Positions 2,283-19,349 of a stretch of DNA of 64,000 nucleotides are shown piece by piece. This DNA comes from an uncultured bacterium. Its GTDB lineage: Bacteria; Omnitrophota; Omnitrophia; Omnitrophales; Aquincolibacteriaceae. Positions within the stretch are counted from its first letter, which is position 1. Each line of letters opens with the position of its first letter. A model generated the notes under the pieces. That model was not told where the DNA came from. It saw nothing but the letters and a program-made list of their open reading frames with translations, and made no database searches. The DNA is taken from positions 5,864 through 69,863 of the forward strand of contig CAYULU010000002.1 in assembly GCA_964445745.1 (NCBI GenBank). Direction: 5' to 3'. The position numbers and the translations under genes are program-made.

Positions 2283-3583
2283 AAAAGACCTCCCGCCCCA
2301 AAAAAAGAAATTTGGTCACAAAGCGTTGCCCAGCTGACAAGGTACGAAATCTCCAAAAAATTCTGGCCCTCAACAGCGTCCTGAATTCCACGCTTGAGCT
2401 GGATCCATTACTCGCCATCATCATGAAAACCTCAGCTGAAGTCATGAAAGCAGAGGTAGCCTCCCTGCTTTTGATTGATTCGGAAACCGAGGAGCTTGTC
2501 TTCCGTGTGGCATTAGGCGGCAAGGGTTCGTCCCTGGAAGAAAAATTTCGTGTCAAAATGGGAGAAGGCATTGCCGGATCAGTCGCCAAGAGTGGGAACC
2601 CTCTCATCGCGAATGATGTGCAGAACGATCCCCGTTTCGCAAAACGTTTTGATCAATCGACCGGATTCATCACGAAAGCAATCCTTTGCGTGCCTCTTAA
2701 AGCCAAGGACAAAATCATCGGGGTACTTCAGGCCATTAATCCCGTCGGCCGCAAAGGTTTTTGTTTATCTGACCTGGATCTTTTTGAAACCTTTGCGCAC
2801 CAAGCGGCGGTCGCAATCGAAAATGCGAAGCTCCATGCCGAGATGGTCAAACAGGAAACCGCAAAACAGACATTAAAAATCGCTCATGAAATTCAGCAAA
2901 ATTTTCTTCCGGATCTAAAAAACAGAAACTACGGATTGGACCTCTACGCTAAAAGTGTGCCCGCGTTCGATGTCGGAGGTGATTTTTATGATGTTGCCGT
3001 TCTCGATAATGATCGCCTGGGAATCATCCTGGGCGATGTATCAGGGAAAGGTGTCCCGGCTGCTCTGTATATGGTTAGAGCAATGTCAGAATATCGTTTT
3101 CTGGCTCCCTCCGCCAAAGATCCGGCTGAACTTCTTACGCGACTCAATAAAAAATTGTCCGAACAAAGTTTCTTCGGTATGTTCATCACTATGGTCTGCC
3201 TCATGGCGGATAAAACCACTGGCACAATCCAGTATGCATCCGCCGGACATCTCCCCATTTTGCTGAGGCACGCCGTAGACGGTACCACCGAGCTCCTCAA
3301 AGGAACTCAAAGTGTCCCTCTGGGACTCGTGCCGGACGCCCCGTTTTTTCTTAACACGATCAAGCTCGAAAAAGGTGATGCTCTTTTCCTTTATACGGAC
3401 GGCGTTACGGAAGCACGAAACAGGCTCGGGAAAGAGTATACGATTGAAGGTCTGACTCGCCGCATTCAGGCGGGGGCCAAATCGGCGGAGGCTTATCTTG
3501 AACAAATCTTCGCAGACGTTCGTTTTTTTTCAGCCGGTGCAGACCAACACGACGACGTCACGGCACTTGCCTTAGTCATTTAA
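2279..3583 (+). CDS. GAF domain-containing PP2C/SpoIIE-type serine phosphatase (RsbU-like)
   Basis: 434 aa. GAF-like N-terminal half (IAGSVAKSGNPLIANDV..DPRF). C-terminal GGDFYD, ILGDVSGKG, TDGVTEA and DD.T motifs of the SpoIIE/PP2C family. Confidence 0.85.
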   Translation: MKKTSRPKKRNLVTKRCPADKVRNLQKILALNSVLNSTLELDPLLAIIMKTSAEVMKAEVASLLLIDSETEELVFRVALGGKGSSLEEKFRVKMGEGIAGSVAKSGNPLIANDVQNDPRFAKRFDQSTGFITKAILCVPLKAKDKIIGVLQAINPVGRKGFCLSDLDLFETFAHQAAVAIENAKLHAEMVKQETAKQTLKIAHEIQQNFLPDLKNRNYGLDLYAKSVPAFDVGGDFYDVAVLDNDRLGIILGDVSGKGVPAALYMVRAMSEYRFLAPSAKDPAELLTRLNKKLSEQSFFGMFITMVCLMADKTTGTIQYASAGHLPILLRHAVDGTTELLKGTQSVPLGLVPDAPFFLNTIKLEKGDALFLYTDGVTEARNRLGKEYTIEGLTRRIQAGAKSAEAYLEQIFADVRFFSAGADQHDDVTALALVI

Positions 3584-3650: not shown

Positions 3651-4760
3651 TTATTCTGGCTTTTTAAAAATGCGGGGAAATGTCAGGGTAAATTTTGTTC
3701 CAACACCCAGCTGACTTTCTACGGCCACTGTCCCTCGGTGCATATTCACCGTGCGAGAAACCACCAGTAGCCCCAGTCCCGTCCCCCGCTTCCCTTTCGT
3801 GGAAAAAAACGCTTCGAAAAGTCGGGCTCTCACTTCTTCTGGCATCCCCGCGCCATTATCTTGAACCGCAACTTCATATTTTTCTGAATCCACCAACCTC
3901 GCAAAAACTTTAATACAGGCGTCGGGCTTATTCTTAAAAGCTTCAAAGGCATTTTTAACGAGGTTAAGGATCGCTCGATAAAGAGACCGGCTATCTCCCT
4001 GCACCTCAGGAAAATCTTCTTCCGCAGAAAACTCCAGCTTTACCGAATACGCTTCTGCCCTTTCTGAAAGATCATTTTTTAATTCTTCGATCAGCACGGG
4101 GATGTTCACAGCTTCCGGTTCAAGCTGGTAGTCCTTACTCAGACTCGTAATCTCCCCAATAAAACCATCCATGTCCTTGAGGGTTTTCCCGAGCTTTTCA
4201 ACCCCGTTAGTAAGAAATTTTTCGTTTTTCTCATAGATGCCCATCCGGATCATTTCGTCGGAAAATTTTGCAAGCTGAAGAATATTTTTAATTTCATGAA
4301 CGAGCATTGCCATCGTCTGCCCGATGGCCGCGAGTCGTTCCATCTTGATGTTTTCTTCAAAAAGCAAAATGTTTTTGAGAGCTCCTGAAAATTCAGACAC
4401 AAAATCAAACCCCACTTCCAATTCCTTCGAAGTAAAATCCTCATTCCGTTCAAAACACGCCAATCCAATGGACGTGTTGCGGGCAATCATGGGAAGAAAA
4501 AGCGTTCCTTTTTGGACAGAGGGCTTTCCTGTATCAAATGCCTGTTGAGCCGATTGTAATAGTTGGGGCGAAACCTCTTTGGGACTCAAAATCGCCCCTT
4601 CGAGCCACAGCTGTTTATCGGGACCTGCAAGAAAAAGGTAGGCCTTCTGCGAAGGGATAAACTGGATGACCGTTTGGAGAAAAAACTCAATCAGGACACT
4701 TTTGTCGGTTATGGCGTCATAGATCCGACCAATCTCGTGAATCGCCTTTTCAGGTCCCAT
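3651..4760 (-). CDS. Cytoplasmic GAF-sensor histidine kinase
   Basis: 369 aa. H-box LVHEIKNIL, N-box LVKNAFEA, G-boxes DNGAGMP and GTGLGL. No transmembrane segment seen. Confidence 0.85.
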   Translation of the reverse strand: MGPEKAIHEIGRIYDAITDKSVLIEFFLQTVIQFIPSQKAYLFLAGPDKQLWLEGAILSPKEVSPQLLQSAQQAFDTGKPSVQKGTLFLPMIARNTSIGLACFERNEDFTSKELEVGFDFVSEFSGALKNILLFEENIKMERLAAIGQTMAMLVHEIKNILQLAKFSDEMIRMGIYEKNEKFLTNGVEKLGKTLKDMDGFIGEITSLSKDYQLEPEAVNIPVLIEELKNDLSERAEAYSVKLEFSAEEDFPEVQGDSRSLYRAILNLVKNAFEAFKNKPDACIKVFARLVDSEKYEVAVQDNGAGMPEEVRARLFEAFFSTKGKRGTGLGLLVVSRTVNMHRGTVAVESQLGVGTKFTLTFPRIFKKPE

Positions 4761-12933: not shown

Positions 12934-13308
12934 CTACCGGGGACCGCCAAATCGCTTTTTGCCCCGAAAACCACCGTCCTGACGATGGAAAGGTCTTCCG
13001 GAATTCCCTCTCGGACGTTCAAAAGAATTTCCCCGGTCATCACGACGTCCCTGGTTGAATCCCCCACCCTGATCATGAGAGCGGAAACCGCCCTCGCGTG
13101 GGCCACGATTGAAAGGACGGCGAAACGGCTTCCGGTGTTCCGAAAAACGCGGTCTCTCGGTTGAGGAACTAGAAGGCTTGGCCAGCAGTGTATCGATCTT
13201 TTTTTCCAGAAAACCCAGTTGTTGCTGGATTCTTTTCAGTAACCCCAAAACATCCGTTTCCTCTTCTAATTCTATATCTTCATTTTCGGTTTCGTGTTCT
13301 TTAGTCAT
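12934..13308 (-). CDS. Hypothetical small protein: acidic coiled-coil N-terminus plus RGG/RG-rich basic tail
   Basis: Start at MTKEHE with an AAAGGAG RBS 6 nt upstream. The C-terminal half is R/G/F-rich (GGFRSHDQGGGFNQGRRDDRGNSFERPRGNSGRPFHRQDGGFRGKKRFGGPR). Confidence 0.55.
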   Translation of the reverse strand: MTKEHETENEDIELEEETDVLGLLKRIQQQLGFLEKKIDTLLAKPSSSSTERPRFSEHRKPFRRPFNRGPREGGFRSHDQGGGFNQGRRDDRGNSFERPRGNSGRPFHRQDGGFRGKKRFGGPR

Positions 13309-13585
13309 CGTAACTCCTTTAAAGTGAAAAGTTAAAAAAGCGCTCACGCACACATTGTATCTTTTAAAAATTTCATCGAACCCTGGTAAGGGCCAAAATC
13401 ACTGAAATCGTCAATCCCTCAAATTAAAATTCTTAAACTTGAGCAGGCAGTATATACGTATTTCGTCCAAAAAGGTCATTTTTATGTGAATTCTCTCGAC
13501 GGGGATACCACACCTCCGCACCACGCGAGCTTTTGGCTTAACCTAGCCCGGGCAATCGAACTGGCATGTTACAAATACTGGCCCA

Positions 13586-14503
13586 CTAAAAAGCAGTTCC
13601 CGTTAATATTTTTTCAAAAGTATCCGGAAGCTCCGAGCACAATTCAATCTCCTTGCCTGTCGCGGGATGAACAAACGCAAGATAATAGGAATGCAAAGCA
13701 ATCCGTTTTACGGGGTCCATCTTTGCGCCGTACTGTTTGTCACCCACAATCGGATTCCCCATATCCGAAAGTTGCACACGGATCTGATGCTTCCGTCCCG
13801 TCCCAAGTTCCACCTCAAGAAGAGAAGCATTCTGCGTCCCCCGCAAAAAACGATAATGCGTCACCGAAAATTTCGCGTTCTCGGATTGGGACGTACTGTA
13901 TACTTTTAAAAACTTGTTTTCCCGAAGATAGCTTTTCAGAGTACCCTCCTTTGGGGAAGGGATCCCTTCCACGACCGCGTAATAACGTTTCGTCACATCC
14001 TGCCAGTTCGTCTGAAGCTGTTCCTTGATCCCCGCTGTTTTTGCAAATACAAGAAGTCCCGAAACTTCTTTATCAAGCCGATGTACCAAAAAGATTTGTT
14101 TCCCATACACTTTGAGCTGATCTGTACTCCGACACACATGATCGTTCGCGGCAAAAAAAGCAGTCCGGTTAGCAACTTTATCCGTAGAGATCGTCAAAAG
14201 TCCCGCAGGTTTATGAATGACAAGCAACCAGTCATCCTCATAAATAATTTGGATCCCAAATTTCAAGGATCCCTTCGTTTCTAATTCCTTTTGCGAAAGA
14301 ATTTGAACGGTATCTCCGGGCTTTAGCGGAAAATTAAACTGTTTTTCCATGATCCCGTTAACCCACACAGATCCAAACTTTAAATACTGCCGCACCTTGG
14401 TGCGTTTGGTATCGGAGAGAAGACTAAAAAGAGTCTCAAGCAGAGCCCCGCTATTTACAATTTTAAGTTCTCTCATGCTCGGCCTTTGGTTCGCCCGCGC
14501 CAA
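13586..14503 (-). CDS. RluA/RluD-family pseudouridine synthase with an S4-like N-terminal domain
   Basis: 305 aa. HRLDKEVSGLLVFAKT catalytic motif and C-terminal GRKHQIRVQL. The start could instead be the M at 14476. Confidence 0.85.
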   Translation of the reverse strand: MARANQRPSMRELKIVNSGALLETLFSLLSDTKRTKVRQYLKFGSVWVNGIMEKQFNFPLKPGDTVQILSQKELETKGSLKFGIQIIYEDDWLLVIHKPAGLLTISTDKVANRTAFFAANDHVCRSTDQLKVYGKQIFLVHRLDKEVSGLLVFAKTAGIKEQLQTNWQDVTKRYYAVVEGIPSPKEGTLKSYLRENKFLKVYSTSQSENAKFSVTHYRFLRGTQNASLLEVELGTGRKHQIRVQLSDMGNPIVGDKQYGAKMDPVKRIALHSYYLAFVHPATGKEIELCSELPDTFEKILTGTAF

Positions 14504-15356: not shown

Positions 15357-16382
15357 TCAGGCTTTCAGTTCCTTGCTGACCGCCGCAAGAAATTCTTTGT
15401 TCGTTGGAAATTTACGAAGTTGCGTGATTAAAGCCTGGATAGATTCCATCGGCTTCAACCCCGCCAATGCACCACGCATCCTTCGGACCGGCTCAAGTTC
15501 TTCCGATCCCAAAAGAAGTTCTTCTTTTCGCGTCCCGCTTTTCGAAAGGTCCACCGCCGGGTAAATCCTCTGGTTTGAAATCTCGCGGGAAAGATAGATC
15601 TCCATATTGCCCGTACCCTTAAACTCTTCAAAAATATACTGATCCATACGGCTTCCAGTATCAACAAGGATCGTTGCAAGAATCGTAAGTGATCCGCCAT
15701 GTTCAATCTTTCGTGCCGAACCAAAAATCCGGCGGGGAACCTCAAGTGCGCGCGAATCCACACCACCCGAAAGAGTCCGCCCGCTCGAAAGCCGTTCCGC
15801 GTTATGCACCCGCGCCAACCTCGTAAGGGAGTCAACAAGCACCATAACATTCGCACCCTCCAAAACTTCACGATAGACCTGTTTCATCAGGGTGTCCGCC
15901 GTTGCAATATGGTGATCATAGGATTCGTCAGAGGATGACCACCTCACCTCAGCCTTGACACTCCTTCTGAAATCGGTCACTTCTTCGGGGCGTTCATCAA
16001 TCAGCAAACAATAGATTTTTATCTCAGGATGACTTTGGGACACAGACTGACAGAGATGCTTCAGAAAAGTGGTTTTCCCTGATCCGGGAGGAGCTACAAT
16101 CAGTCCCCTCTGCCCCATCCCGATCGGCGAGACAAGATCCATCACCCGCATGGTCATCTCTTGGGAGCCATCCTCCAGCCGAATCCGGGGAGAAGGATCA
16201 ATCGCAATACTCGCCCTGAATTGCCTCGCCACCTCATCCTCTTGATTTGAGCGATGCCCCCCATGCGCTCCCGAGTCCACGCCCCCGGCTCGTCCATATC
16301 GCCGGGAAAGATCCGGCCGCCTTGGGCCGTAACTGGGACCACGATTCGACCGTGAATTTTTGTGGTGATTAAAATGCCTCAT
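15357..16382 (-). CDS. rho: Transcription termination factor Rho: ATPase core only, with an R/G/S/H-rich N-terminal tail
   Basis: 341 aa. Aligns by eye to E. coli Rho from the linker onward (Walker A GLIVAPPGSGKT, LLIDERPEEVT, Q-loop SGRTLSGGVD, R-loop TGSRMD..EEFKGTGNME, SGTRKEELL). No GFGFLR/OB-fold region is present. Confidence 0.9.
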   Translation of the reverse strand: MRHFNHHKNSRSNRGPSYGPRRPDLSRRYGRAGGVDSGAHGGHRSNQEDEVARQFRASIAIDPSPRIRLEDGSQEMTMRVMDLVSPIGMGQRGLIVAPPGSGKTTFLKHLCQSVSQSHPEIKIYCLLIDERPEEVTDFRRSVKAEVRWSSSDESYDHHIATADTLMKQVYREVLEGANVMVLVDSLTRLARVHNAERLSSGRTLSGGVDSRALEVPRRIFGSARKIEHGGSLTILATILVDTGSRMDQYIFEEFKGTGNMEIYLSREISNQRIYPAVDLSKSGTRKEELLLGSEELEPVRRMRGALAGLKPMESIQALITQLRKFPTNKEFLAAVSKELKA

Positions 16383-18196
16383 GTTTTCAATTTATCCAAT
16401 TTGGACTGAAGCGAACACCACTCATCTTCAGCTTTTTCGATTCCGATCTGCGCCGCTTTGAGGCGCAGGTTTCGCTCCTTTGAAAAATGAAGAGGATTAG
16501 CTGCCATTTCCTTGAGTAACTTGTCACGCTCTTCCGTAAAGTGTTTCATGCGCCCTTCCGCTTTCGTCATAGCCTTCTTAAGTTTTTTAACCTCTTCGTT
16601 TGTCTTCCCTTTCGGAGACTGGCCGCCCACCCAATCCTTCGAGGATACAGACAAATGTTTTGAAGCCGCCGGAACTTCCGCTATCTCCTCAGCGGGGTCT
16701 TCACGTTCTCCCCGCGCAATCTGTTCACGAAAATAAACATAATCTTCGTAACTTCCGGGATAACGCAACACCCGTCCTCGTTTCACCTCAAGGATCTTGT
16801 CCGCAACGATATTCACAAACGTGCGATCGTGGCTGATGAACACAACAGTCCCGTTGAACCTCCTCAGGGCCTGGGCAAGCGCCTCGACCGTTTCAAAATC
16901 AAGATGGTTGGTCGGCTCGTCAAGAAGAATGACGTGGCTTTTGGAAAGAAGCAATCCTGCCAGCACAAGCCTTGCCCGTTCGCCACCACTCAACACTTTG
17001 ACTTTTTTCTTAACATCATCCCCTTTAAAAAGAAAACAGCCCGCCATATTCAGAATATCCTGGCTGGTCACTTCCTCAGCACTTTCACGCAAAAGGTGGG
17101 TATAAATATCATCTTCCGGATCCAGGGTGGAGAAAACATGCTGTGCGTAGAATGCGGTCTTAAGACCTGTTCCCCAGCGAAAACTTCCACGTTTGGGGGC
17201 AAGATCTCCTGACATGGTTCTGAGCAGAGTCGTTTTGCCTTCCCCGTTATCCCCGAGCACCGCAACACGACACCCACGTTCAATTTCAAATTCGATACTA
17301 CTCGCAACATCTTTTTCCGGATATCCGATCGTCAGGCCTTCACACGAAAAGGCAATGCCGGCCTTCGATTCGACGGCGGGGATGGGGATTTTGACATGGC
17401 TCATGGGATGCGCGATCTCAATCGTCTTGAGTTTAGAAAGCTGTTTCATTTTGGACTGAGCTCGAGAAGCCGTGGAAGCTTTCGCACGGAAACGGTCGAT
17501 AAAAGCCTGGAGCTGTTCACGTTTTTTCTCCACGCCCCTGTTGTGCGATGCAATCTGGGCGGCCTGCACTTCCTTAAATTCAAAATATTCTTCAATGTCA
17601 CCTGGGTAAAGCGTAAGCTCGCCGCCTTCCACTTCAAGGGTGTGATCACATGTCCGCTTCAGAAATTCGCGATCATGGGAGACCACCAGAAACCCTCCGC
17701 GAAAATCCAGAAGAAAATTCTCGAGTAGAATAAGTGTGTTCAAATCGAGATAATTGCTGGGCTCATCAAGGATCAAAAAATTAGGATTCCCGAGAAGCAT
17801 GGCAGAAAGCTTCACACGGGTCTGATAGCCGCCCGGGAGACTGCGGACGGGGAATTCTAGCATCTCATTGGTAATATTGAACCGTGCTGATACCTGCCCG
17901 CATTCCCAATGTTCACTTCCGGTGGTTCGCATGAGGAAATCAACCACCGTTTCCTCGGGGCCAAAAGAATCGTGTTGCTCCAGATAACTGAGCCTTAAGG
18001 CGGAATTTTTTACAACGGTGCCGCTATCGGCCGTCTCATGCCCGGTAATGATTCGACAAAGGGTCGATTTACCGGCACCGTTTCTGCCAATCACACCAAT
18101 CTTTTGATCATCCCCGAAGGCCGCGGAAGCATCCTCAAGAATGACCGATGCCCCGTACGCTTTACAGACCGCGTTGATCTGGAGGAGAACTGTCAT
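16379..18196 (-). CDS. ABC-F family ATPase (two ABC domains, C-terminal coiled coil)
   Basis: Start trimmed to MTVLLQINAV, 7 nt after the ADH stop. Two Walker A motifs (GRNGAGKST, GDNGEGKTT), two LSGG signatures, no transmembrane domain. Confidence 0.9.
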   Translation of the reverse strand: MTVLLQINAVCKAYGASVILEDASAAFGDDQKIGVIGRNGAGKSTLCRIITGHETADSGTVVKNSALRLSYLEQHDSFGPEETVVDFLMRTTGSEHWECGQVSARFNITNEMLEFPVRSLPGGYQTRVKLSAMLLGNPNFLILDEPSNYLDLNTLILLENFLLDFRGGFLVVSHDREFLKRTCDHTLEVEGGELTLYPGDIEEYFEFKEVQAAQIASHNRGVEKKREQLQAFIDRFRAKASTASRAQSKMKQLSKLKTIEIAHPMSHVKIPIPAVESKAGIAFSCEGLTIGYPEKDVASSIEFEIERGCRVAVLGDNGEGKTTLLRTMSGDLAPKRGSFRWGTGLKTAFYAQHVFSTLDPEDDIYTHLLRESAEEVTSQDILNMAGCFLFKGDDVKKKVKVLSGGERARLVLAGLLLSKSHVILLDEPTNHLDFETVEALAQALRRFNGTVVFISHDRTFVNIVADKILEVKRGRVLRYPGSYEDYVYFREQIARGEREDPAEEIAEVPAASKHLSVSSKDWVGGQSPKGKTNEEVKKLKKAMTKAEGRMKHFTEERDKLLKEMAANPLHFSKERNLRLKAAQIGIEKAEDEWCSLQSKLDKLKT

Positions 18197-18203
18197 GAAC
18201 TGG

Positions 18204-19349
18204 TTATGCCCTTGAAAGGAGAATTTCAGCGACCGCGGCTGCGTCAATCGTACCGTGTTCGCCAAAAAACGCCTTGCGTTCCTTGAGCCGGGCGCCAATC
18301 TTCGCGGCAGCCTCTTCAGCAGAAATCTTGTAATGCCCCAACCGGGTCGGCATCTGCAGGGAGTGGAAAAATTCTTCGGTTTTCACAATAGCTTCTTCAG
18401 CAGTACGAATTCCCCAAACGCGCCCGGCGTATTGTTCCAGCTTCTTTTGTTTAGCCTTGACTTGATGCCTCCAGACCCCGGGAAGTACGATGGCTAGCGT
18501 TTCCGCGTGATCCAGTCCGTAGAATGCCGTCAATTCATGCCCGATCATGTGGGTGGACCAGTCCTGAGGCGCGCCGCAACTAATCAAATGGTTCAGGGCA
18601 AGAGTTGCCGACCACATAAAAGTAGCCCGGGCCTCATACTGAACCGGTTTTTTCAGTGCCGCAGGAGCTATCTCAATCAGGGTTTGAAGTAAAGACTCCG
18701 CCAGCCTGTCCTGGAGAGGCACCTTTGCAGGGTATGTCATGTATTGTTCCATCACATGCACAAAGGCATCGACAATTCCGTTCCTTACATACTTCGCTGG
18801 AAGTGAATAGGTTGTTTCGGGATCCAGAACCGAAAAAACCGGATAAACCTTCGAGGAATAGAACGGGAGTTTCTCATGGGTCGATCCCCTTGAAATCACG
18901 GAATTACCGTTGGATTCGGATCCGGTCGCCGGAAGAGTCAATATCGTTCCTATCGGGAGCGCCATTTGCACATTCGAACCACCCTCTTTCAGGATCGCCC
19001 AGGGATCTTTCCCTTTGAACGGAACGGCCGCCGCGATAAATTTCGCAGCATCAATGACGGATCCTCCGCCCACAGCGAGGATAAAACCGATTTTTTCTTT
19101 CCTGACAATTTCAACCGCCTTAAGACAAGTTTCGTAGAGAGGGTTCGGTTCCACACCCGAAAATTCAATAACCTTCCGTCCTTTTAAGGAATTGCGTACC
19201 TGCTCATAAACACCGTTTTTTTTAATGGAACCGCCGCCATAAAGAAAGAGAACTTTCAGAGAATCCGGAATCCGTCCTTTCAGCTCCGGGATCATGCCTT
19301 TCCCAAAAAGAATTTCCGTAGGATTCTTGTAAGTAAAATTGTTCATCAA
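18204..19349 (-). CDS. Iron-containing alcohol dehydrogenase (YqhD/butanol dehydrogenase-like)
   Basis: 381 aa. GGGS.ID..K motif (AVGGGSVIDAAKF) and His-rich metal site (H...HMIGHELT). Confidence 0.9.
   Translation of the reverse strand: MMNNFTYKNPTEILFGKGMIPELKGRIPDSLKVLFLYGGGSIKKNGVYEQVRNSLKGRKVIEFSGVEPNPLYETCLKAVEIVRKEKIGFILAVGGGSVIDAAKFIAAAVPFKGKDPWAILKEGGSNVQMALPIGTILTLPATGSESNGNSVISRGSTHEKLPFYSSKVYPVFSVLDPETTYSLPAKYVRNGIVDAFVHVMEQYMTYPAKVPLQDRLAESLLQTLIEIAPAALKKPVQYEARATFMWSATLALNHLISCGAPQDWSTHMIGHELTAFYGLDHAETLAIVLPGVWRHQVKAKQKKLEQYAGRVWGIRTAEEAIVKTEEFFHSLQMPTRLGHYKISAEEAAAKIGARLKERKAFFGEHGTIDAAAVAEILLSRA

Follow-up and report, generated by a model that had tools for sequence, protein, structure and literature searches.

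The DNA analysed here, a stretch of 64,000 nucleotides from an uncultured bacterium of the Omnitrophota (the window), encodes a Rho protein of only 341 amino acids in which the connector and the RecA-type motor are intact but the N-terminal RNA-binding domain is missing (Table 1). In place of the missing domain, the protein carries a cationic tail that is predicted to be disordered. The reading we favour, with a probability of roughly 55%, is that this short Rho is a functional hexameric RNA translocase of the Rho family and the standard Rho of Candidatus Omnitrophota, in which the N-terminal domain has been replaced by a disordered, Arg-rich tail of ~ 30–50 amino acids starting with M-[RK]-x-[FY], and that these tails, perhaps together with NusG, capture RNA non-specifically.

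The sole Pfam match of the protein was PF00006 (E 1.5e-20). The Rho equivalog model NF006886 scored 376.8 bits (cut-off 315), with profile positions 130–412 of 413 alone being matched, and TIGR00767 scored 365.1 bits (cut-off 509.45), with positions 132–414 of 415 matched. Rho chains in the PDB were found with E-values down to 1e-89 and aligned from query residue ~ 62, which corresponds to E. coli ~ 140, onward; the NCBIfam and the PDB alignments both begin C-terminal to the OB-fold. Identity to E. coli Rho (P0AG30) was 49% across 272 aligned residues and T. thermophilus Rho (8HSJ) matched with 304 bits. In the AlphaFold2 model, which was calculated for the monomer, residues 50–341 had pLDDT values > 90 except for the Q-loop region, where lower values are expected because the loop is flexible; Foldseek superimposed the core on Rho structures with 1.6–2.0 Å over ~ 283 residues. 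K103/T104, E130, R131, D184, R285 and the Q- and R-loop residues are invariant or nearly so in 75 family members, the alignment of which has more than 100 invariant columns, and in the connector F55, P63, R66, L69, E70 and G72 are invariant. The P-loop has an invariant G100 where E. coli has K181. In the secondary RNA-binding site, changes with respect to E. coli are limited to K to R and T to S: the Q-loop reads SSGRTLSGGVD (K283 to R, T286 to S) and the R-loop TGSRMD is conserved. The bicyclomycin pocket, as listed in PMC11347177, is identical in 11 of 11 residues (P180, K184, D210, E211, R212, D265, S266, R269, L320, T323 and G337). The initial annotation had recognised the motor of Rho, starting at the connector; the Pfam match and the NCBIfam matches to the C-terminal part confirm that residues 48–341 are an intact Rho connector and RecA-type motor.

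Table 1 Features of the short rho gene, its product and the flanking genes, in positions of the window
Feature	Position	Strand	Basis and remarks
ABC-F ATPase, YheS/EttA-like, with C-terminal coiled-coil extension	16379..18196	-	Pfam ABC_tran x2 and ABC_tran_Xtn; NCBIfam ABC-F models; upstream of rho
Short rho gene, 341 aa and stop	15357..16382	-	ORF list; codes for the cationic disordered tail, the connector and the RecA-type motor of Rho
N-terminal motif M-R-H-F (family consensus M-[RK]-x-[FY])	16371..16382	-	Family tails
Tail, residues 1-47, Arg/Gly/Ser/His/Asn-rich, predicted disordered	16242..16382	-	AF2; no Pfam match; replaces Rho N-terminal domain
Connector, residues 48-77, ~ E. coli Rho 126-156; helix 50-57	16152..16241	-	NCBIfam/PDB alignments begin here; AF2 pLDDT > 90
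RecA-type ATPase core (PF00006), residues 78-282	15537..16151	-	Pfam; Foldseek against Rho structures
Walker A/P-loop APPGSGKT; K103, T104	16071..16094	-	Pairwise mapping to E. coli Rho; family invariants
LLIDERPEEV; catalytic Glu E130, Arg valve R131	15978..16007	-	Mapping and family invariants
Walker B and bicyclomycin-pocket residues VMVLVDSLTR; D184, S185, R188	15819..15848	-	Mapping and family invariants
Q-loop of secondary RNA-binding site, residues 197-209; R202, S205, G206, G207	15756..15794	-	Mapping; invariant in family
R-loop of secondary RNA-binding site, D241-T-G-S-R245	15648..15662	-	Mapping and family; E. coli K326 to R
Arginine finger R285 (E. coli R366)	15528..15530	-	Mapping and family invariants
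C-terminal helical subdomain, helices 293-307, 311-323, 328-340	15360..15506	-	AF2 model; aligns to Rho C-terminus
orf76, 76-aa gene directly downstream of rho, small Xre/Cro-like helix-turn-helix	15110..15340	-	Homologues, synteny, AF2, Foldseek

The first 82 residues gave no Pfam match even at E ≤ 10, and neither the Rho_N helical bundle (PF07498) nor the OB-fold with its RNP1 motif GFGF (PF07497) gave a signal in the 341-aa protein; PF07497 was detected in the control Rho proteins of loci L012 and L015. The helical bundle and the OB-fold, i.e. the primary binding site, are therefore missing, as had been proposed from the sequence at first sight.

The tail comprises 47 residues, of which 10 are R or K, 2 D or E, 5 H, 8 G and 6 S, giving a net charge of +8 plus 5 His. 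Most of residues 1–44 (segments 1–3, 11–15 and 18–44) had a pLDDT < 50 and no secondary structure was predicted before residue 50. The initial annotation described a tail of ~ 55 aa rich in R, G, S, H and N; a basic, disordered tail is indeed there, but pLDDT and composition set its length to 47 aa. Compared to an orthologue with 93% identity, 16 of 47 positions differ in the tail and 8 of 294 in the core, so that the tail evolves at ~ 12 times the rate of the core while length and charge are retained. Family tails contain 20% R, 14% P, 11% H and 10% S and have a median net charge of +7. Of the 92 family members whose tails have at least 20 aa, 68 carry the motif M-[RK]-x-[FY], 60 of them at position 1, and it is kept where the upstream gene is a different one (L010, L011, L022). 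The tail is thus selected for its composition, not its sequence. Tails of less than 20 aa were called in 29 of 121 family sequences, at least some of which are start-calling errors or fragments; in one seemingly tail-less member, a mis-called start had hidden an MRKF tail.

The best 120 homologues listed are 66–93% identical to the short Rho and have the same OB-less architecture, the M-[RK]-x-[FY] N-terminus and a tail that evolves fast while its composition is conserved; the named members among them are mostly Candidatus Omnitrophota. The OB-less architecture is far beyond chance and, since the best 120 homologues listed share it, not a truncation artefact. In an exhaustive search, the closest OB-bearing Rho had an identity of only ~ 54–56%. 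Similar OB-less Rho proteins with Arg-rich tails are found in Binatia/Methylomirabilota, Hydrogenedentes and other MAGs: seven OB-less cluster representatives were examined, of which six have an Arg-rich tail (net charge +9 to +17) and the seventh, P0205, has a tail of only 9 aa with a net charge of +3. Judged from these sequences, the OB-less form is not peculiar to one genome; it seems to be the conserved Rho form of Omnitrophota and recurs in other lineages. A scan of the genome contigs for rho loci with very specific peptide patterns revealed only orthologues and Planctomycete Rho, with at most one locus per genome. In a bootstrapped tree, the OB-less Rho proteins were recovered as one clade in 0 of 200 replicates, which does not support a single origin of all of them; as the deep nodes are poorly resolved, the number of independent losses is uncertain. 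Since the OB-less lineages never formed one clade, the tree suggests that the OB-fold was lost recurrently.

A literature search revealed neither a paper pairing Omnitrophota or Omnitrophica with Rho nor one on a Rho without RNA-binding domain. With canonical Rho (E. coli P0AG30, T. thermophilus 8HSJ; Type 1 of Moreira et al. 2024) the short Rho has both the connector and the complete RecA-type C-terminal domain in common, including Walker A and B, the catalytic Glu, Arg valve and Arg finger, the Q-loop, the R-loop and the pocket for bicyclomycin, but the canonical N-terminal domain (~ E. coli 1–125) is exchanged for the 47-aa tail. Type 4 or “Group B” Rho and the proteins of NF041509 (“Rho, short form”, paralog_Rho2) are likewise shortened (~ 330–390 aa), lack the helical bundle and occur, like the short Rho, in PVC-related and other phyla; however, the OB-fold is kept there (PMC11347177) and is absent from the shorter protein of the window. 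The latter scored 332 bits against NF041509 (cut-off 628) and matched positions 74–359 only, leaving positions 1–73, which are the OB-fold as shown by a Phycisphaerae protein from L015, unmatched; membership in the “short form” Rho2 or Type 4 was therefore rejected. The initial view that Rho varies mostly by insertions and not by loss of the N-terminal domain has to be amended: Type 4/“Group B” and the NCBIfam “Rho short form” are without the helical subdomain, although the OB-fold is kept in them (PMC11347177). IDR-bearing Rho (Type 2: the M. tuberculosis NID, the Bacteroides thetaiotaomicron IDR, Planctomycetota L012–L019) has, like the short Rho, an Arg/Gly-rich IDR N-terminal to the motor, but there 100–500 aa are added to an intact OB-fold, whereas the short Rho has the IDR alone (~ 45 aa). 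The IDR of M. tuberculosis Rho is critical for Rut engagement (1759 versus 47 sites, PMC13650167).

According to the main text of the survey by Moreira et al. 2024 (PMC11347177), Rho counts as functional only if the RNA-binding domain is kept; ATPase-only sequences are tallied as non-functional “Rho-like” and receive no analysis in that text, from which Omnitrophota are absent, so they were apparently not sampled. With only the ATPase detectable, the short Rho fits the “Rho-like” class as described there (one of three Rho domains detectable), which is defined as non-functional, but the short Rho is phylum-wide and highly conserved, its motor is intact and its tail motif is conserved. As cited in the same survey, RNA binding was abolished in E. 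coli Rho without the first 27 N-terminal residues. On the other hand, recognition by the primary binding site (PBS) can be largely compromised in E. coli in vivo with NusG assistance (PMC4150792). The suggestion of the initial annotation that a basic tail might take over rut-site binding gains some indirect support from this partial dispensability of the PBS, from the role of the M. tuberculosis IDR in Rut engagement and from the pairing of OB-fold loss with an Arg-rich tail in the six representatives. The PBS mutants for which NusG compensates (Shashni et al. 2014, PMC4150792) resemble the short Rho in that primary RNA binding is crippled or absent and loading is helped via the C-terminal domain. 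They are, however, laboratory point mutants which retain a folded N-terminal domain, whereas the short Rho is a natural, complete deletion in which NusG would presumably act.

To our knowledge, the current models of Rho-dependent termination (catch-up and stand-by) all begin with the N-terminal domain. In the catch-up model, C-rich rut RNA is captured by the OB-fold and in the stand-by model, the N-terminal face of Rho docks on RNA polymerase and NusA. For the short Rho, we infer hexamer formation, RNA binding by the tails, assistance by NusG and a role in termination as follows. Six protomers would assemble into the usual ring through their intact C-terminal domains, which in Rho contain the hexamer-cohesion motifs (PMC12360218), and the six cationic tails would then lie on the face normally occupied by the N-terminal domains. 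By electrostatic attraction, they could trap nascent RNA that is exposed and not being translated, without the selectivity of the OB-fold for YC dinucleotides, and hand it to the intact secondary site of Q-loop and R-loop. Loading of the secondary site would close the ring and start translocation in 5'→3' direction towards RNA polymerase, driven by ATP; NusG probably helps in this step, as it does at rut-poor terminators in E. coli. A wider version of this model is tentative: Omnitrophota and, independently, Binatia/Methylomirabilota, Hydrogenedentes and others might have the OB-less protein as their only Rho and terminate natively without a PBS, with RNA being captured by six disordered Arg-rich tails, perhaps aided by a short N-terminal docking motif and NusG, in place of sequence-selective OB-folds.

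The main rival, which we regard as rather unlikely, is that the short Rho is a specialised paralogue beside a canonical full-length rho, which forms mixed hexamers that tune Rho, removes R-loops, remodels RNPs or acts as a secondary terminator dependent on NusG or another partner. Of 2730 surveyed genomes, 116 have two rho genes, particularly those of the PVC group, with the second copy being the reduced one, but every described second copy retains the OB-fold (PMC11347177). OB-less clades lie near Type 4-like short forms in the trees and the identity of the C-terminal domain to E. coli Rho is fairly low (49%), which would fit a paralogue; against it stand the very strong conservation within the family seen in the 75 aligned sequences, the use of the name Rho by those database sources that give one and the lack of a close OB-bearing relative. 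A related OB-less family of Binatia-like organisms resides in genomes of 4.4–4.9 Mb, which leave easy room for a second copy, whereas the short rho belongs to a housekeeping operon in a genome of ~ 1.8 Mb. It is located in a housekeeping neighbourhood and translationally coupled to an ABC-F gene, the true start of which is likely M35 of the listed 639-aa ORF (the orthologue in L001 has 605 aa); ABC-F and rho are syntenic in L001 and L003–L009.

An improbable alternative is a split or adaptor-dependent Rho, in which RNA is recognised in trans by a partner docking on the motor, possibly via M-[RK]-x-[FY]; candidates are an NTD-only “Rho-like” protein, a cold-shock/OB protein, NusG, and the co-transcribed ABC-F or 76-aa protein. 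NTD-only Rho-like proteins are described for some bacteria, Baekduia and Conexibacter for example (PMC11347177), and a short, conserved, strictly N-terminal motif on a variable tail resembles a docking motif. However, tblastn of the window and of ~ 200 kb of orthologous Omnitrophota loci, with the E. coli N-terminal domain and Planctomycete and Type-4 OB-folds as queries, revealed no coding sequence for an OB-fold or N-terminal domain, while every control locus was detected; a separate gene for the domain in the window or these loci was therefore rejected. The order ABC-F, rho, orf76 is kept in eight orthologous loci, which would suit a partnership, but both ABC-F and orf76 are missing near rho in L010, L011, L022 and other OB-less lineages. 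Orf76 itself has 55 homologues in all, of which the few with an organism name are Omnitrophota/Omnitrophica, and is syntenic in L001–L009. Its structure, predicted from database homologues, has five helices (pLDDT 86.8) and was matched weakly by Foldseek to C.AhdI, 434 Cro and ClgR (TM 0.5–0.67); with such a small Xre/Cro-like HTH in the model and no RNA-binding OB-fold, orf76 was rejected as a surrogate RNA-binding module. Further, the cationic tail is the only N-terminal feature common to most OB-less lineages examined.

That the Rho-derived motor was repurposed for a substrate other than RNA, or is a translocase no longer, is very improbable: a change of substrate could accompany the loss of the substrate-selecting domain, but the T3SS/FliI/F1 ATPase models scored ~ 300 bits below the Rho models, and an ATPase of the FliI/T3SS or F1/V1 beta type was rejected with at best 79 bits against cut-offs > 380 and no folded N-terminal (beta-barrel crown) domain. 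An artefact in which a normal rho is masked by a wrongly called start, by 5' truncation to a pseudogene or by faulty assembly is effectively refuted. Gene callers do misplace starts in the short-Rho family, in both directions, but here the ATG of rho (ORF list) overlaps the stop codon TGA of the ABC-F gene upstream in a tight ATGA (context ...AAA ACA TGA GGC...) and an in-frame TAA is located four codons 5' of it, so no N-terminal extension is possible. The initial annotation had already argued from the overlap that there is no space for an upstream exon, and an in-frame upstream start restoring an OB-fold, of which it had seen none, does not exist. In the orthologues, stops or other genes are found directly 5' of the rho start, which likewise speaks against an alternative start or a missing exon. 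Moreover, the identical architecture of the best 120 homologues listed comes from independent assemblies, including a contig of 1.78 Mb, and exactly the same protein is encoded on five further contigs.

The short Rho has consequences for annotation: surveys that require PF07497 would score the OB-less lineages as being without a functional Rho, and the start of this family is often misplaced by gene callers. A Rho that is conserved throughout a phylum, with a perfect motor and a disordered cationic tail of ~ 45 residues, is a natural deletion experiment, for which the intact bicyclomycin pocket provides a ready chemical probe. If the short Rho terminates transcription, the primary binding site would be dispensable, RNA could be selected by electrostatics, accessibility and cofactors, and disordered regions of Rho, which have been implicated in M. 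tuberculosis and Bacteroides, could suffice instead of being merely auxiliary. If the OB-less protein is indeed the only Rho of these lineages, the OB-fold would be no universal requirement and “rut” specificity an add-on to a more basic sensing of naked RNA.

The initial annotation had described the product of the short rho gene as a Rho protein without the N-terminal RNA-binding domain, and domain searches, structure alignments and modelling show that this is correct. PF00006 (residues 78-282) was the sole Pfam match, residues 1-82 gave no Pfam match even at E<=10, and the identical search recovered the Rho OB-fold (PF07497) in two control Rho proteins (Planctomycetota and Phycisphaerae loci). 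The NCBIfam Rho models matched only the C-terminal two-thirds: NF006886 was aligned over profile positions 130-412 of 413 with 376.8 bits (cut-off 315), while TIGR00767, with 365 bits, stayed under its cut-off (509). Alignments to solved Rho structures begin at residue ~62, which corresponds to E. coli residue ~140, and continue onward. In an AlphaFold2 model based on an alignment of 75 family members, residues 50-341 had a pLDDT >90 save for the flexible Q-loop region, residues 1-44 were mostly at pLDDT <50 and secondary structure was predicted only from residue 50. The modelled core superimposed on Rho of E. coli, M. tuberculosis and T. maritima with 1.6-2.0 Å over about 283 residues. The disordered tail described before is present, but it comprises 47 and not ~55 aa.

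The ATG of short rho and the stop codon (TGA) of the ABC-F gene upstream of it share bases (…AAA ACA TGA GGC…), confirming the overlap noted earlier, and the two genes are translationally coupled via this ATGA. No alternative upstream start had been seen and, indeed, an in-frame TAA is located four codons 5' of the ATG. Since the next in-frame ATGs (codons 76 and 78) fall within family-invariant positions, no start other than the annotated one makes sense. An artefact can practically be dismissed. A tblastn search for Rho NTD/OB coding sequence, which found all positive controls, revealed none in the window or the Omnitrophota loci.

Judged by residue mapping, the motor of short Rho is intact. 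The alignment to the E. coli reference (419 aa) agrees with the PDB alignments. Equivalents of Walker A K184/T185, the catalytic E211, the Arg valve R212, Walker B D265 and the Arg finger R366 (E. coli numbering) were found, and the Q-loop (K283->R, T286->S) and the R-loop (K326->R, shared with Rho chain 8HSJ) are kept. All 11 residues of the bicyclomycin pocket, as listed by Moreira et al. (PMC11347177), are identical. The mapped motor and pocket positions are invariant or nearly so among 75 family members, and the position of E. coli K181 is an invariant Gly, a family-specific change.

A homologue search in 5.8 billion protein clusters yielded 8000 scored matches. The best 120 of these all had 261-380 aa, 66-93% identity and PF00006 alone; those with a named organism came nearly always from Candidatus Omnitrophota/Omnitrophica and were annotated as "transcription termination factor Rho" ("hypothetical protein" in one older record). 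Gene callers mis-call starts in this family both ways, and the database lengths therefore overstate the real variation: extended calls run into the 3' end of the upstream gene (the 'VEFSGKENGKTS-MRNF…' forms upstream of rho in the orthologous loci L007, L008 and L009), and the tail is trimmed in P0063, which was called from an internal ATG (locus L022, 9929..10000). Five database contigs carry a protein identical to short Rho, and on a 1.78 Mb contig of GCA_040767405.1 the orthologue is 93% identical in the same gene order. Directly upstream of the orthologues in GTDB representative genomes (L003-L011) are stops or another gene. Short Rho is no accident but a form shared throughout the Omnitrophota lineage. 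In an exhaustive HMMER search of 1.84 billion 50%-identity representatives, OB-bearing Rho proteins reached at most about 54-56% identity; the OB loss is, therefore, ancestral to the whole short-Rho clade.

Tail statistics were based on the 92 of 121 sequences with a called tail of at least 20 aa. The tails contain 20% R, 14% P, 11% H, 10% S, 8% G and 8% N; their median net charge is +7, and 13% of their residues are hydrophobic (core, 39%). Between short Rho and its 93%-identical orthologue, 16 of 47 tail but only 8 of 294 core residues differ. The pattern is that of a disordered region under selection for composition and length. The motif M-[RK]-x-[FY] occurs in 68 of the 92 tails, in 60 of them at position 1, and is a protein-level feature since it is also kept in L010, L011 and L022, which have a gene other than ABC-F upstream. 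Some "tail-less" family entries are start-calling errors; in P0063 an in-frame ATG upstream of the called start gives MRKFTPSSRNDQGRRRYSPSASRP.

Short forms of Rho have been described before. A survey published in 2024 (2730 genomes; PMC11347177) distinguishes Types 1-4, of which Type 4/"Group B" lacks the helical Rho_N alone and keeps the RNA-binding domain; "functional Rho" has RNA-binding and ATPase domains there, and single-domain proteins are relegated to the supplement as "Rho-like". The NCBIfam "Rho, short form" also includes the OB-fold (positions 1-73, as seen with a Phycisphaerae Type-4-like protein). In contrast, short Rho has no OB-fold and matched only positions 74-359 of this model, far under the cut-off, which makes it shorter than the short forms known so far. 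A literature search found no paper tying Omnitrophota to Rho and none on a Rho lacking the RNA-binding domain.

OB status was also judged, by a jackhmmer OB profile and Pfam, in the 150 nearest 50%-identity cluster representatives. The OB-fold is missing in seven (P0121, P0124, P0132, P0143, P0155, P0162 and P0205), six of which have N-terminal tails that are rich in Arg, 37-146 aa long and carry a net charge of +9 to +17; the called tail of P0205 has just 9 aa (net +3). Source names include Candidatus Hydrogenedentes and Candidatus Sericytochromatia. The P0162 family comprises about 75 clusters, and its source names point to MAGs of Candidatus Binatia, Methylomirabilota and "Deltaproteobacteria", some of the hosts having circular genomes of 4.4-4.9 Mb; in its loci L023-L028, rho stands alone between divergently oriented neighbours. 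Together with P0155, P0143, P0124 and P0132 it represents separate OB-less, Arg-rich-tailed families outside Omnitrophota, hosted by Binatia/Methylomirabilota-labelled MAGs, Hydrogenedentes and unnamed lineages. In a neighbour-joining tree of C-terminal domains (200 bootstraps), Omnitrophota, P0121 and P0205 grouped together (96%), P0143 joined an OB-bearing protein (68%) and deeper nodes lacked resolution. The OB-less sequences formed a single clade in 0 of 200 bootstraps, which points to several independent OB losses without proving them; most would be coupled to a disordered cationic tail. P0205 (MEZ0371657.1, 301 aa) is labelled Candidatus Sericytochromatia; since Cyanobacteria proper are not known to have Rho, it either was acquired horizontally, reflects a binning error or is an interesting relic.

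Short rho lies among housekeeping genes (metK, ahcY, Fe-ADH, nth, thiamine genes, gatCA), and the order ABC-F, rho, orf76 was found in 8 orthologous loci; both neighbours are missing beside short rho in L010, L011 and L022, and also in the other OB-less lineages.

Features in and around the short rho locus
Feature	Coordinates	Strand	Remarks
139-aa ORF	12934..13353	-	acidic helical N-terminal half; R/G/F-rich (RGG-like) C-terminal half
RluA-type pseudouridine synthase gene	13586..14503	-	also in L004, L005
orf76, 76 aa	15110..15340	-	directly downstream of rho; syntenic in 8 loci
short rho	15357..16382	-	ORF of 341 aa
ABC-F ORF as listed	16379..18298	-	TTG start; overlaps Fe-ADH gene
giant ORF, 4295 aa	36985..49872	-	two Pfam domains only

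The ABC-F protein is YheS/EttA-like with a Lys/Glu-rich coiled-coil extension at its C-terminal end; its real start is probably Met35 (18196), since the orthologue has 605 aa. The product of orf76 has only 55 homologues, the few with an organism name from Omnitrophota/Omnitrophica, is highly conserved (12 invariant columns) and matched no Pfam or NCBIfam family; since its predicted structure is a five-helix HTH of the Xre/Cro kind, it was rejected as OB surrogate. The 139-aa ORF, a second Arg/Gly-rich disordered protein near short rho (C-terminal half including …GGFRSHDQGGGFNQGRRDDRGNSFERPRGNSGRPFHRQDGGFRGKKRFGGPR), had no family match; it is conserved in L001 and L003 and, less well, in L004 and L005. 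In L001 (11880..12027) and L003 (7703..7850), 93%-identical relatives, remnants of about 25 codons of the RluA-type gene indicate its recent deletion between close relatives. The giant ORF has a pseudouridine synthase domain (3870-4017) and a methyltransferase domain (about 3027-3136), with ~3900 residues outside any Pfam match. Nearly all long ORFs of the window are on the minus strand, and plus-strand GC skew is uniformly negative (about -0.07 to -0.17) apart from one near-zero bin at 48-50 kb. Canonical Rho favours a C>G bias, the opposite of the G-rich short rho mRNA (30% G vs 22% C).

The observed anatomy and conservation are best read as those of a working Rho ring, for which we infer RNA binding by the tails, hexamer formation and termination; the interpretation given in the initial annotation is thereby supported in part. 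Six cationic tails would replace the OB crown, capture RNA non-specifically and feed it to the intact secondary site, probably assisted by NusG. The Rho CTD bears the motifs for hexamer cohesion, ATPase and translocation (PMC12360218), Rho of M. tuberculosis depends critically on its disordered insertion to engage Rut productively (PMC13650167) and in E. coli, primary-site recognition in vivo can be largely compromised if NusG aids isomerisation (PMC4150792). That short Rho is a specialised paralogue in genomes that also carry a canonical Rho seems rather unlikely, but it stays a serious rival because genomes of the PVC group commonly carry a second rho (PMC11347177); an adaptor acting in trans is the weaker alternative. 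The OB-less, IDR-tailed Rho is the conserved form in Omnitrophota and recurs in other lineages, and the finding would gain in interest if short Rho were the sole Rho of these organisms.
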